DNA of 64,000 bases from a virus (lineage: Duplodnaviria > Caudoviricetes). The translations under genes were made by a program, and so were the position numbers. The stretch lies in the IMG/VR virus record IMGVR_UViG_3300010340_001122, one strand, 5' to 3'. Of this stretch, positions 24,008 through 34,201 are shown piece after piece (within the stretch, counting starts at the first letter, position 1; each line of letters begins with the position of its first letter). The notes beneath the pieces are model-generated. The model had not been told where the DNA came from, ran no database searches, and saw only the letters and a program-made list of their open reading frames with translations.

Positions 24008-24038
24008 TTTGACATTATAGAAAACTTTTGTATATTTG
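24008..24038 (+). promoter_or_regulatory. Bacteroidota-type promoter of tRNA array 1
   Basis: TTTG-N19-TATATTTG; a TAATATATA motif also lies at 24071-24079. Confidence 0.8.
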
Positions 24039-24086
24039 TAATGTAAAAGAAACAAGAGAGAAACAATTTTTAATATATAAGAAATC

Positions 24087-24194
24087 ATGACAACAGTTCG
24101 TACACATAAATCTTTTAGTAAATCGTTTAAATGGCATTTTAAAAGCCATCGATTCGGTACTAAGAACGAACTGCCAAAAAATGAGATAGTGTAA
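24087..24194 (+). CDS. Leader peptide 1 (35 aa, H/K/F/W/S-rich)
   Basis: MTTVRTHKSFSKSFKWHFKSHRFGTKNELPKNEIV*, between promoter and terminator. Confidence 0.75.
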   Translation: MTTVRTHKSFSKSFKWHFKSHRFGTKNELPKNEIV

Positions 24195-24221
24195 TCTCGT
24201 AATTTTTGATAGTGAAATTCC

Positions 24222-24259
24222 AAAAACCCGAATACAAAAGATTCGGGTTTTTTGTTTTT
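24222..24259 (+). terminator. Attenuator terminator 1
   Basis: AAAAACCCGAAT-ACAAAAG-ATTCGGGTTTTTTGTTTTT directly before the first tRNA. Confidence 0.85.
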
Positions 24260-24263
24260 ATAT

Positions 24264-24356
24264 GGTGTCAGTAGCCGGTAATTGGTAACCGACCAGATTG
24301 TGGCTCTGGAATGACTTCAAAAAAGTCTTTTGCGGGTTCGAGTCCCGTCTGACACC
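24264..24356 (+). tRNA. tRNA-His(GTG) with long variable arm
   Basis: G-1, GTGTCAG/CTGACAC, CCAGA-TTGTGGC-TCTGG, V-arm GACTT/AAGTC, TTCGAGT, C73. Confidence 0.8.
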
Positions 24357-24361
24357 CAAAT

Positions 24362-24434
24362 GGAGCCTAAGCTAACTTGGTAGAAGCACTGGTCTGAAAA
24401 ACCAGAGGACCCGGATCGTAACCGGGAGGTTCCA
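24362..24434 (+). tRNA. tRNA-Phe(GAA)
   Basis: GGAGCCT/AGGTTCC, CTGGT-CTGAAAA-ACCAG; atypical T-loop ATCGTAA. Confidence 0.85.
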
Positions 24435-24441
24435 CAAAAAT

Positions 24442-24515
24442 GGTGATTGTAGCTCAATCGGTAGAGCGCAGGTTTGTGGCACCTGAGGCAGCGGGATCGA
24501 AACCCGTCATTCACC
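24442..24515 (+). tRNA. tRNA-His(GTG)
   Basis: G-1, CAGGT-TTGTGGC-ACCTG, T-loop ATCGAAA, C73. Confidence 0.88.
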
Positions 24516-24524
24516 CAAAAAAAT

Positions 24525-31033: not shown

Positions 31034-31067
31034 TAATATAAATAAATAATAAATAAAGACACATAAA

Positions 31068-31103
31068 ATGAAAACAATGTACTACATATTCAGAAATGAT
31101 TGA
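31068..31103 (+). CDS. Leader peptide 3 (11 aa)
   Basis: MKTMYYIFRND*(TGA); in-frame SRSVVL*(TAA 31122-31124) follows. Confidence 0.7.
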   Translation: MKTMYYIFRND

Positions 31104-31132
31104 TCAAGGTCAGTAGTGCTATAACTATATCT

Positions 31133-31194
31133 ACCCAGTCAATCAAAAATTGACTGGGTTTTTTTTACCCAGTTATTCCGAACTGGGTTTTTTT
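31133..31194 (+). terminator. Tandem attenuator terminators 3A/3B
   Basis: ACCCAGTCAAT-CAAAA-ATTGACTGGGT-T7, then ACCCAGTT-ATTCCG-AACTGGGT-T6. Confidence 0.88.
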
Positions 31195-31219
31195 ATGCCC
31201 AATAAAAAATTAAACAGAT

Positions 31220-31564
31220 ATGAAAATAAAACAACAGATACGAGATAAATTCAGAAAAGATGTCTTTGAAAGAGACAACTATAAGTGTGTAATATGTGGT
31301 AAATCAGATCTTAAATTAGATGCTCATCACATAACTAATCGAAAAAAGATGCCGAATGGTGGATATGTTAAGGAGAATGGTATCACACTTTGTGATTGTT
31401 ATGATGGGTGTCATTTTAAAGCTGAACAATTCAATTGTGGTTATACTGAGTGGTATGTTATTCAGACTAAAGGACAATACTTGGAAGAATTTACAGCTGA
31501 AAATCTATACAAAAAAATTAACTCAAGCTATGAACTAGCTTATAAAAAATCAGAAAGACTATGA
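31220..31564 (+). CDS. Small HNH endonuclease
   Basis: VFERDNYKCVICG...DAHHI...ENGITLC...CH. Confidence 0.85.
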   Translation: MKIKQQIRDKFRKDVFERDNYKCVICGKSDLKLDAHHITNRKKMPNGGYVKENGITLCDCYDGCHFKAEQFNCGYTEWYVIQTKGQYLEEFTAENLYKKINSSYELAYKKSERL

Positions 31565-31779
31565 ACACAGATGTCAATGAGGATTTTGAAAACATATATG
31601 AAGAAAAAGTCCAAGATATAAAGAAAAGAAAACGAGCTCTTCGTTTCATTCAAGATCCAAATATGGTTAAGAAAATCAAAAAAGATCTTGAACGTGAGAA
31701 GCGTGGAGTAAAACGCTCTGAAAAGCACCAGCTTAAAGAGTGGATAAAAAAAGAATTAAATAAAGATCCTTTATTATAG
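31561..31779 (+). CDS. Small charged helical protein
   Basis: ATGA overlap with HNH gene. Confidence 0.6.
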   Translation: MNTDVNEDFENIYEEKVQDIKKRKRALRFIQDPNMVKKIKKDLEREKRGVKRSEKHQLKEWIKKELNKDPLL

Positions 31780-31830
31780 TAATTGTATAGTTTTTCATTT
31801 TAATATATAAAATAAAAAAAATTAATAAAA

Positions 31831-32712
31831 ATGAAATGGACAAAAGAAGAATGTATGAGAGTTTCTTTATATTTTAAAAAAAGAAGTGATTTTGAAAGAA
31901 ATTATAGAGGTGCATATATGGCTGCTTTAAAAAATAATTGGATAGATGAAGTATGTTCACATATGGACACAGTGAAGGTATGGAGTGAAGACGAGTGTTA
32001 TACAGAATCTTTAAAATATGAAAGTAGGTCTAAATTAGCTTTTAATAATCCAAGTGTGTATAAAAAAGTAATTAAAAATGGATGGACTCATATGTTCTCA
32101 CATATGAATAATAACTATGTTAATGATAAAAGATGTATTTATTCCTATGAATTCTCTGATAATAGTGTTTATATTGGATTGACAAAAAATATAGAGAATA
32201 GAAATAGACAACACATGAATAAAGGTACAGTTTTTAACCATATTAAAAAGTGTAATTTGTTTAATTTTATTAAGCTAACTGATTATTTAGACATACAGGA
32301 TGCTGTAAAAAAAGAGACTGAATATATTGATTTATATAAATCTAAAGGATTTAGTATTTTAAATAAAATAAAAGCTGGTGGTATTGGTAGTACTGGTAAT
32401 TTATATAAAAGTACTTATTGGACAAAGGATAGGTGCTTTGAGGAATCTTTAAAATATAAATATAGGTCGGAATTTCAAAAAAAATCACAGAGTGCTTATC
32501 GTTCCGCTCAAAAAAATGGATGGCTTAATGAAGTATGCTCTCATATGATTTTAGTGAGAAAACCAAAAGGTCACTGGACATTTGAAGAGTGTAAAAAGGA
32601 GTCATTAAAATATAGAAATAAAAATGATTTTCAAAAAAACAACTCGAGCGCATATAGTGCTTCGTATAAAAATAAATGGTTAAATATTTTTTTCAATGAA
32701 AACATACTGTAA
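31831..32712 (+). CDS. GIY-YIG homing-type endonuclease with WTxxxC repeats
   Basis: CIYSYEFSDNSVYIGLT...R..QH...E...I...G..ILN; four W(T/S)...C repeats. Confidence 0.8.
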   Translation: MKWTKEECMRVSLYFKKRSDFERNYRGAYMAALKNNWIDEVCSHMDTVKVWSEDECYTESLKYESRSKLAFNNPSVYKKVIKNGWTHMFSHMNNNYVNDKRCIYSYEFSDNSVYIGLTKNIENRNRQHMNKGTVFNHIKKCNLFNFIKLTDYLDIQDAVKKETEYIDLYKSKGFSILNKIKAGGIGSTGNLYKSTYWTKDRCFEESLKYKYRSEFQKKSQSAYRSAQKNGWLNEVCSHMILVRKPKGHWTFEECKKESLKYRNKNDFQKNNSSAYSASYKNKWLNIFFNENIL

Positions 32713-33352
32713 AATTCCCTATTTTAACCAAGGATTATTTGGTGAAGACATCTACGCATTCGATAAATTAGATGGTAGTAATATTCGCGCCGAATGGAAT
32801 CCCAAAAGAGGATGGTATAAATTTGGAACTAGAAATACAATGATTGATGAAAGAGATTTACAATTTGGAGGAGCTATCACACTATTCTTAAACAAATATG
32901 GTGATAGTCTTCCAAAGGTATTCATAACAAATAAAAGTTATAAACGAATTGAAAGTTTTGTAGTATTTGCTGAATATGTTGGAGAACAATCTTTCGCTGG
33001 TCGTCATATTGATGGTGATCCAAAGGATATTATATTATTCGATGTTGATCAATATAAACATGGATTTGTTACTCCAAAAAACTTTATTGAAGATTTTGGA
33101 CATTTACATATACCGGATGTTATTTACAAAGGACCCTATACAATGGATTTTGTTCAAGATATTCGAAATAATAATCACAAATTAAAAGAAGGTGTTATTG
33201 TTAAGGGAGTTTATAAAACTAAGAATAAAAAAGATGAAGTATGGATGGTTAAAGTGAAAACTATTGATTGGCTTCAAAAAGTTAAAACACTACATGGTGA
33301 AAGGGCACTTCTTGAAGAACTTAATGGAGATAAAAGACTATTAGATTTATGA
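32696..33352 (+). CDS. ATP-dependent RNA ligase-like protein (Rnl2-type NTase fold)
   Basis: Motif I KLDGSN, III FAE, IIIa LFDV, IV EGVIVK, V KVK. Confidence 0.8.
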   Translation: MKTYCKIPYFNQGLFGEDIYAFDKLDGSNIRAEWNPKRGWYKFGTRNTMIDERDLQFGGAITLFLNKYGDSLPKVFITNKSYKRIESFVVFAEYVGEQSFAGRHIDGDPKDIILFDVDQYKHGFVTPKNFIEDFGHLHIPDVIYKGPYTMDFVQDIRNNNHKLKEGVIVKGVYKTKNKKDEVWMVKVKTIDWLQKVKTLHGERALLEELNGDKRLLDL

Positions 33353-33522
33353 AAAAGATAATATCAATATTAGAGATACTTGTAATCATTGGATTTATAA
33401 TCTATACATTTATGACCAATGATAGACCAACAGATAAAGTTTTCTTTTTTCTGTTAGAGTTAAGTGCTATATCAATATGGCACCTTTATGATAAATATAA
33501 AAACACAGAAAATGAAAATTAG
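33349..33522 (+). CDS. Small two-TM membrane protein (57 aa, not in ORF track)
   Basis: MKKIISILEILVIIGFIIYTF...; overlaps both ligase genes. Confidence 0.5.
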   Translation: MKKIISILEILVIIGFIIYTFMTNDRPTDKVFFFLLELSAISIWHLYDKYKNTENEN

Positions 33523-34201
33523 AAATATATCTCCAGATTATTGTAGAATACCACATTTTAGTAAAGAAATATCTAATATGACTCACGATGATATCGAATT
33601 AGATATTCCTATGCAGTTTCCATTTGAATGTCATATTCAAGAGAAAATTGATGGCGCAAATATGGGTATATCTTGGGTGGATGGTCCAATTCTTAGAAAT
33701 AGAAGTCATATTCTTAAAAAAGGATATACAAAAATACAAACACCTGCTAAAAAACAATTTACTTCGGCTTGGAATTGGCTTCATAAACATGAAGATGATA
33801 TTAAAATGGTTAGTGAATTATGTTATTCACCAATTACAATTTATGGTGAGTGGATGTTTGCAAAGCATTCATTATATTATGATAAACTTCCTGATTTATT
33901 TATTGCATATGACATATGGTGTGCTGAAGATTATGAGTTTTTATCACCGGAAATAGTTGAAGAATTATTATCTAAAACTGATATTAAATATATCAAACCG
34001 ATTAAAACACAAATTAATTCAATTTCAGATATTGTAGAATGGTCTGAAAAGAATTCAGATTATAGAAATGGAATTAGAGAGGGTATTGTTATTAAAACTT
34101 CAAATGGAAGATTTGTAGATAAATCTTTTAAAGTTGTGAATAAATATTTTGAAAGAAGAGATGATTTTAATGATGGTTTAATTAAAAATAAAAGAGTCTA
34201 A
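33512..34201 (+). CDS. ATP-dependent RNA ligase family protein
   Basis: QEKIDGAN, YGEWMFAKHS..YD.LP, FIAYDI, REGIVIK, FKVV. Confidence 0.85.
   Translation: MKIRNISPDYCRIPHFSKEISNMTHDDIELDIPMQFPFECHIQEKIDGANMGISWVDGPILRNRSHILKKGYTKIQTPAKKQFTSAWNWLHKHEDDIKMVSELCYSPITIYGEWMFAKHSLYYDKLPDLFIAYDIWCAEDYEFLSPEIVEELLSKTDIKYIKPIKTQINSISDIVEWSEKNSDYRNGIREGIVIKTSNGRFVDKSFKVVNKYFERRDDFNDGLIKNKRV

Follow-up and report, generated by a model that had tools for sequence, protein, structure and literature searches.

The purpose of phage tRNA genes has long been debated, with compensation for codon bias, replacement of degraded host tRNA and escape from anticodon nucleases as the proposed reasons. A stretch of 64,000 nucleotides from a Caudoviricetes virus (IMG/VR record IMGVR_UViG_3300010340_001122; hereafter the window, meaning the whole 64-kb stretch analysed) raises this question in a particular form, as two of its tRNA arrays and an operon with two RNA ligase genes each stand behind a promoter, a short open reading frame (ORF) and an intrinsic terminator. 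What would such an arrangement control, and in response to what? An initial annotation had proposed ribosome-mediated attenuation. On the basis of the comparisons described here, the units are very probably ribosome-coupled transcription attenuators with codons matched to the tRNAs they gate, their translation, coupling, switching and trigger being inferred from sequence and predicted structure. The best reading of the data is that classical ribosome-coupled attenuation has been adapted to supply tRNAs on demand across the whole genetic code.

All three units of the initial annotation could be recovered with coordinates (Table 1). In each of them, a Bacteroidota promoter is followed by a short leader ORF, an antiterminator segment, an intrinsic terminator and the cargo. 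The promoters share one format, TTTG, a spacer of 19-20 nt and TATATTTG, and the window, with 28% GC, has Bacteroidota promoters of the primary-sigma type with the TAnnTTTG consensus (PMC9723704). The 5' stretch behind each promoter is A-rich, the terminators are G/C-cored hairpins with a U-run, and both arrays begin about 20 nt or less past their terminators. No other convincing promoter-leader-terminator unit was found in the window, where two more hairpin candidates sit 3' of ordinary genes.

The leader codons had been said to match the cargo, and for units 1 and 2 they do. Array 1 consists of two His, two Phe, two Trp and three Lys tRNA genes, both Trp genes being detected only with a lowered ARAGORN threshold, and 41% of the leader 1 residues match this cargo against 17% expected (p = 6e-4). 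For leader 2 the corresponding values are 43% and 12% (p = 3e-4); its Ser run does precede Ser and Arg tRNAs only, as the members of array 2 with an assigned type are all Ser or CGN-reading Arg. The Ser/Arg leaders also spell Arg as CGT or CGC, as read by the CGN cargo, though CGN makes up 12% of the Arg codons of the window, a comparison with few independent cases. Compared with the homologous loci L002 and L004, leader 2 has lost 11 nt between short repeats (28340-28366), which has shifted its end and moved the antiterminator beside the Arg codon.

The pairing of leaders and cargo was then evaluated by permutation, in a first set of 29 leader/cluster units from nine genomes that were located by eye, with the leader chosen by a fixed rule. 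None of 100000 global permutations over the 29 units reached the true pairing (0/100000), which was the best of 5040 arrangements in LR745206, of 5040 in LR756502, of 24 in LR756501 and of 6 in Cellulophaga phage phi4:1, and the translated frame scored above both other frames in 28/29 units. Because these units had been located by eye, a blind set was added, comprising IMG/VR loci picked by terminator pattern only. It held 47 tRNA clusters with a terminator. A leader was found at 47/47, and the score of -0.97 against a null of -18.4 +/- 1.5 was again reached by 0/100000 permutations, with about 2/47 of the rule-chosen ORFs evidently being the wrong ORF. Fourteen more clusters in the blind set lacked a terminator closer than 200 nt (these were Met pairs, or units starting farther upstream or beyond the locus). 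The codon-anticodon correlation asked for in the initial annotation is present at other tRNA clusters.

The leaders are likewise conserved. All three are kept in close relatives, one with an in-frame 3-nt deletion, and at homologous loci. The array-1 region matches the megaphage records LR745206 and LR756502; five genomes of >634 kb have been placed in the Mahaphage clade, with Bacteroidetes as predicted hosts (PMC7162821). A codon-matched leader precedes 19/19 multi-tRNA clusters examined in the three megaphages LR745206, LR756502 and LR756501. The first two have seven such clusters each, every one with its own leader, in the groups His/Phe/Trp/Lys, Ser/Arg, Glu/Tyr, Ile/Gly/Ala, Asn/Leu/Val/Ile/Thr/Met/Arg, Pro/Asp and poly-Gln. 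In LR756501 the amino acids are regrouped, and five leaders track the regrouping: Leu; Glu/Met/Gln; Arg/Pro/Ala/Thr/Val/Gly; Tyr/Asn/Asp/Cys/Ile; and His/Phe/Trp/Lys/Ser. Lone tRNA genes, such as a single Met or Arg(UCU), have no leader. In LR745206, LR756502 and phi4:1 the gated clusters account for 19 amino acids, and in LR756501 for the full 20. Genes for aminoacyl-tRNA synthetases of class I and class II also stand behind this switch in LR745206 and LR756502, with leaders rich in Ile, Leu, Asn and Asp. The design is also present in Lak-C1, in LR756511 and in the cultivated phages Cellulophaga phi10:1 (one unit), phi4:1 (three) and Tenacibaculum Gundel_1 (two), and it is retained in phages from 54 kb to 735 kb.

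An exact-match search for the Ser leader in IMG/VR returned nothing. Among the matches listed from bacterial genomes by terminator pattern, a sample that is mostly non-Bacteroidota, 24/25 tRNA clusters had no terminator-leader, and the single match with one is a 2-kb contig of a metagenome-assembled genome that may itself be phage. LR745208 (L044-L046), a GC-rich 485-kb phage with TTGACA promoters, has six or seven tRNA clusters with codon-matched leaders and no intrinsic terminator, which suggests that, in a host outside the Bacteroidota, the control works through Rho or at the level of processing. In LR756501, the Tyr/Asn/Asp/Cys/Ile leader is separated from its tRNA cluster by an ORF that resembles ribosomal protein L7/L12 (L020 9330-6853, minus strand), and two tandem tRNAs with a CUA anticodon, amber suppressor-like, stand there without a leader (L023 10585-10740).

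How could a leader act on the terminator behind it? Each leader had been described as containing a copy of its terminator's 3' arm that could pair with the 5' arm. Near-copies are found in all three leaders, and the duplexes become convincing only across homologues. Over the 29 units, duplexes between a leader segment and its own 5' arm give -317 kcal/mol against -215 +/- 11 kcal/mol for permuted pairs, and 13/29 units reach p<0.05 singly against shuffles. Among members of the unit-1 family, changes in the leader segment are accompanied by changes in both arms of the terminator. Matched codons make up 69% (271/393) of the positions upstream of the antiterminator, at which a stalled ribosome would not cover the segment, and 32% (100/310) beyond it. 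When folding was modelled with a walking ribosome, the 5' arm was predicted to be captured until about the last test codon and then released, the stop codon included. Full-length folding prefers the terminator in all three units. With the equilibrium on the side of the terminator, the decision has to fall during transcription, under kinetic control. The 1:2 protector (pause) helix, which in classical attenuators gives superattenuation when translation is absent, is predicted only in part in unit 1, and for unit 2, unit 3 and the majority of homologues the antiterminator is predicted to form without a ribosome. Most units would consequently be ON if no ribosome loads, a design that may be fail-safe, unlike trp. 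An A at -3, a positive initiation determinant in Flavobacterium (PMC6847099), is present in 23/29 leaders, and flavobacteria show signs of leader-peptide attenuation (PMC9723704). Conservation, permutation, reading-frame control and antiterminator covariation together support the logic of ribosome-mediated attenuation that had been proposed, as far as sequence comparison and folding models reach.

On this model, host RNA polymerase would initiate at the Bacteroidota promoter and a ribosome would translate the leader. If the test codons are read fast, the ribosome would cover the antiterminator segment, the terminator would fold, and transcription would end ahead of the cargo. A shortage of the matching aminoacyl-tRNAs, whether through degradation or cleavage of the tRNA, lack of charging or excessive demand from phage protein synthesis, would make the ribosome linger on the test codons; the free segment would then capture the terminator 5' arm, and the polymerase would read into the tRNA genes for those codons, whose products would close a feedback loop. 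The set of units would span nearly the whole genetic code, with phage aminoacyl-tRNA synthetases under the same switch.

Unit 3 would place under this switch an operon that encodes a small basic protein along with two RNA ligases, with Tyr sensed (His and Tyr in relatives with a short histidyl-tRNA synthetase, HisRS). The initial annotation had set the leader residues YYIFRND before a two-ligase operon. Both leader and ligases are present, but the predicted sensing window includes only Y5-R9. Sensing by leader 3 of the complete set of queuosine tRNAs (Tyr, His, Asn and Asp) was considered and rejected, as its Asn and Asp codons fall outside that window. The two ligases are PF09414 ATP-grasp proteins (37.2 and 92.6 bits against a Pfam cut-off of 27), with no sequence match in the PDB. 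The small basic ORF, which had no match in Pfam or Atlas, possibly encodes an RNA- or ribosome-binding protein. Among the loci with this ORF, all that extend far enough have one or more ligases downstream, so that the ligases are a stable cargo of the unit 3 attenuator. In relatives, the ligase operon includes a HisRS catalytic core (PF13393) of about 210 amino acids, half the usual length (L001 7730-8380, L006 23156-23791). A His codon is present in every distinct leader with a HisRS-core gene and in none without, and Tyr is kept in all but two distinct leaders of the small-basic-ORF loci. Tyr is thus the conserved sensor codon of unit 3, which is a weaker case than units 1 and 2, as its link between leader codons and cargo is confined to His and HisRS in the relatives. 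As the freed 3' arm of its first terminator can capture the 5' arm of the second, one decision could open both. At L059 (2170-3093), a gene with an HD domain (PF13328) and Ser tRNAs lie downstream of the ligase.

A motif, AATATATA[A/C], occurs at 31 sites in the window (e.g., 24072, 28284, 28527 and 31802); AATATATA lies upstream of 16/31 ORF starts against about 3% expected, and it is a probable phage promoter. The copy at 31802 stands ahead of the inserted GIY-YIG gene, between attenuator and ligases. Hence, of the claim that the RNA ligases are gated, their position behind unit 3 stands, while the gating itself is less secure, given the His/Tyr leader with the mini-HisRS in relatives and this motif.

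Several observations weigh against the attenuator interpretation. Leader 1 has four Ser codons, yet array 1 contains no standard Ser tRNA, and after the 11-nt deletion Arg14 of leader 2 stands at the edge of the sensing window. The three antiterminator duplexes of the window are singly weak against shuffles (p 0.16, 0.07 and 0.19), and most antiterminators are weaker than their terminators. Transcription from the promoter-like motifs at 28527 and 31802 could circumvent the switches, and the latter motif may drive the ligases independently. The exact specificity of the synthetases was assigned from Pfam class and leader, and the covariation of His codon and HisRS was discarded as repeated evidence, as it amounts to a single split in the tree, with one contig too short to score. 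The permutation p-values overstate independence, because many units are homologous. Several unrelated groupings and phage families nevertheless agree despite this homology.

The units resemble the trpL, hisL, thrL and ilvL (ilvGMEDA) attenuators of E. coli in their promoter, leader control codons, mutually exclusive antiterminator and terminator, and in having several amino acids per leader. In contrast to these classical attenuators, the cargo of units 1 and 2 is phage-encoded tRNA instead of biosynthesis or synthetase genes (the latter are seen in sister units of LR745206), so that the product is the sensed molecule; the set of units covers the code, and a single leader may address as many as about 14 amino acids; and most units lack a predicted 1:2 protector helix. 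The units share no sequence homology with these attenuators, and membership in the Rfam families His_leader (RF00514; 31.9 vs 49 bits) and Thr_leader (RF00506; 21.3 vs 55 bits) was rejected, as both scores are below the gathering threshold. The pheM attenuator of E. coli pheST, in which leader codons control an aminoacyl-tRNA synthetase, is chromosomal, responds to a single amino acid and includes no tRNA genes; the phage synthetase units of LR745206 and LR756502 resemble this control. T-boxes likewise sense tRNA charging through a choice of terminator or antiterminator. However, they bind uncharged tRNA directly, without translation, and need the tRNA to be present, and the Rfam T-box covariance model with specifier loop gave no match. 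T-boxes may also precede a few clostridial tRNA genes. In T4, Rnl1 and Pnk repair the cuts made by PrrC; neither the T4 repair genes nor phage rescue tRNAs are known to be attenuated. The Anabaena trn operon under TrcR is also a silent tRNA array induced by translational stress (PMC10272220), but it is one array under a protein repressor that acts at initiation and is not codon-specific. The RtcR RNA repair operon also makes RNA ligases upon tRNA damage, but RtcR is a protein activator that binds tRNA fragments (PMC7790460). Arrest-peptide leaders of the ermCL or tnaC type were dismissed, as they would need a cargo-independent arrest motif, and the leader sequences here change with the cargo tRNAs.

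What would open the switch? An attenuator reads decoding speed and not its cause, so that tRNA cleavage is indistinguishable from lack of charging. The initial annotation had proposed that cleavage or depletion of specific tRNAs switches on the matching tRNAs or repair enzymes. The codon-matched attenuator agrees with this proposal, but coverage of 19-20 amino acids and the synthetase cargo are more in line with a general sensor of slow decoding than with a countermeasure against particular anticodon nucleases such as PrrC. The ligase cargo and the CGN-specific Arg codons, in turn, favour tRNA loss over amino-acid lack. We tentatively suggest, as plausible but far from assured, a codon-resolved feedback network in unrelated phage groups, in which the attenuators audit tRNA supply and release only missing tRNAs, with synthetases and repair ligases wired alike, as an inducible general answer to tRNA-destroying defences.

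A narrower history, in which the same switch evolved as a counter-defence, detecting the cleavage of particular tRNAs by host anticodon nucleases (PrrC, RloC, PARIS or retron effectors) and answering it with resistant tRNAs and repair ligases, is possible but rather doubtful. Nuclease targets include Lys, Tyr, His, Ser and Arg tRNAs. Two ATP-grasp RNA ligases lie behind unit 3, beside the arrays, and the CGT/CGC codons of the Ser/Arg leaders suggest sensing at the level of the tRNA. The ligases of jumbo phages have been interpreted as tRNA repair enzymes (PMC7824862). However, the gated clusters extend well past the nuclease-target subset, synthetases are gated likewise, and cleaved tRNA could not be told from uncharged tRNA by such a switch. 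It is also unlikely that the switch is mainly a starvation sensor, by which uncharged tRNA in nutrient-poor hosts would call for more tRNA and synthetase to compete for amino acids. Extra tRNA would not cure a lack of amino acids, RNA ligases make little sense as a response, and the clusters ignore biosynthetic pathways (His/Phe/Trp/Lys; Glu/Tyr; Pro/Asp). The synthetase cargo, which resembles that of pheST and of control of the hisS type, would suit such a role, as would the leaders found in flavobacteria before biosynthesis operons (PMC9723704) and the Ser leader codons (AGY) with no matching isoacceptor in the detected cargo (8/27).

The preference of full-length folding for the terminator, the AATATATA motif inside leaders and arrays, and the matched leaders of LR745208 that have no intrinsic terminator might point to constitutive dampers, or to terminators overridden by a phage antitermination factor or a late promoter, with leaders that do not control read-through. 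This would leave unexplained the frame- and cargo-specific codons, their position upstream of a co-varying antiterminator and the retention of the design across the whole range of genome sizes, and we regard it as improbable. Chance, i.e., short AT-rich ORFs that are common before terminators and were picked after seeing the cargo, is refuted by the fixed leader rule, the blind set and the far lower scores of the other frames, even though the first 29 units were found by eye.

A literature search, with subscription journals outside its coverage, returned no published description of attenuated tRNA genes, and neither attenuation nor leaders are ever mentioned in PMC7162821 and PMC7824862; the earlier impression that leader-peptide attenuation of phage tRNA genes had not been described is borne out within that coverage. 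Should the predicted mechanism hold, the phage would itself signal when each tRNA is needed, and the rival purposes of phage tRNA genes would become separable by the condition that opens each switch. This can be tested in the cultivated Cellulophaga phages phi4:1 and phi10:1, whose hosts are culturable. Attenuation would also be extended to non-coding cargo with direct product feedback, the leaders would offer ready-made sensors of tRNA depletion for Bacteroidota, and they could predict the function of uncharacterised cargo genes.

Table 1. Coordinates of the three units and their cargo in the window (L numbers denote homologous loci)
Feature	Position	Strand	Remarks
Unit 1 promoter	24008-24038	+	Bacteroidota primary-sigma type; -33 TTTG at 24008, 19 nt, -7 TATATTTG at 24031
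Leader ORF 1	24087-24194	+	35 aa; His/Lys/Ser/Phe/Trp sensing codons 7-20 (24105-24146); homologues L002, L004, L006, L007, L008, L070
Antiterminator segment 1	24151-24157	+	near-copy of terminator 3' arm; pairs with 5' arm 24227-24233; co-varies with terminator in L007, L008
Intrinsic terminator 1	24222-24253	+
tRNA array 1	24265-25268	+	His 24265, Phe 24362, His 24443, Trp 24524, Phe 24620, Trp 24699, Lys(UUU) 24972 and 25092, Lys(CUU) 25182
DUF559/MTES_1575 endonuclease ORF	25329-26222	+	after array 1; probably mobile
tRNA-like gene	26232-26365	+	acceptor, D and T arms normal; long branched insert replaces normal anticodon arm; conserved in L002, L004
Unit 2 promoter	28251-28282	+	-33 TTTG at 28251, 20 nt, -7 TATATTTG at 28275
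Leader ORF 2	28298-28366	+	22 aa; Ser run codons 8-13 (28319-28336), Arg(CGT) codon 14; homologues at >10 loci
Antiterminator segment 2	28340-28350	+	near-copy of terminator 3' arm; pairs with 28384-28395
Intrinsic terminator 2	28381-28416	+
tRNA array 2	28424-30000	+	Arg(UCG) 28424, Ser(UGA) 29414, degenerate Ser(UGA) 29505-29588, Arg(GCG) 29830, Ser(GGA) 29913
DUF559 endonuclease	28553-29401	+	inserted in array 2
tRNA-like element, 230 nt	29592-29824	+	in array 2; acceptor stem intact, large insert; tRNA-Ser(GCU) at that place in L002, L004
Unit 3 promoter	31003-31033	+	-33 TTTG at 31003, 19 nt, -7 TATATTTG at 31026
Leader ORF 3	31068-31103	+	11 aa; tandem Tyr (TAC TAC) 31080-31085
Antiterminator segment 3	31098-31109	+	near-copy of terminator 3' arm; overlaps leader 3 stop codon; pairs with 31133-31143
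Tandem terminators of unit 3	31133-31195	+	T1 31133-31166, T2 31167-31195; tandem also in L055, L058, L062
HNH-like ORF	31220-31564	+	below Pfam cut-off
Small basic ORF	31561-31779	+	first or second gene behind attenuator in loci where attenuator recovered
AATATATAA motif	31802-31810	+	before GIY-YIG ORF; probable phage promoter
GIY-YIG ORF	31831-32712	+	inserted
RNA ligase A	32696-33352	+	PF09414
RNA ligase B	33488-34201	+	PF09414; followed by bidirectional terminator 34181-34222

The three endonuclease genes in or beside the gated units (25329-26222, 28553-29401 and 31831-32712) are probably mobile, because their content varies among close relatives. An Rfam scan returned nothing but tRNAs above threshold, and a match to YrlA was rejected as sub-threshold. 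The tRNA-like gene behind the first endonuclease is possibly a decoy or the remnant of an intron. Long variable arms, unusual for their type, are present in His 24265-24357, Trp 24524-24615 and the Lys genes at 25092-25176 and 25182-25268. Elsewhere in the window, an ORF with collagen-like repeats occupies 11150-13024, and a lipoprotein-like ORF at 22946-23779 carries Asn/Trp repeats and a C-terminal tandem repeat.

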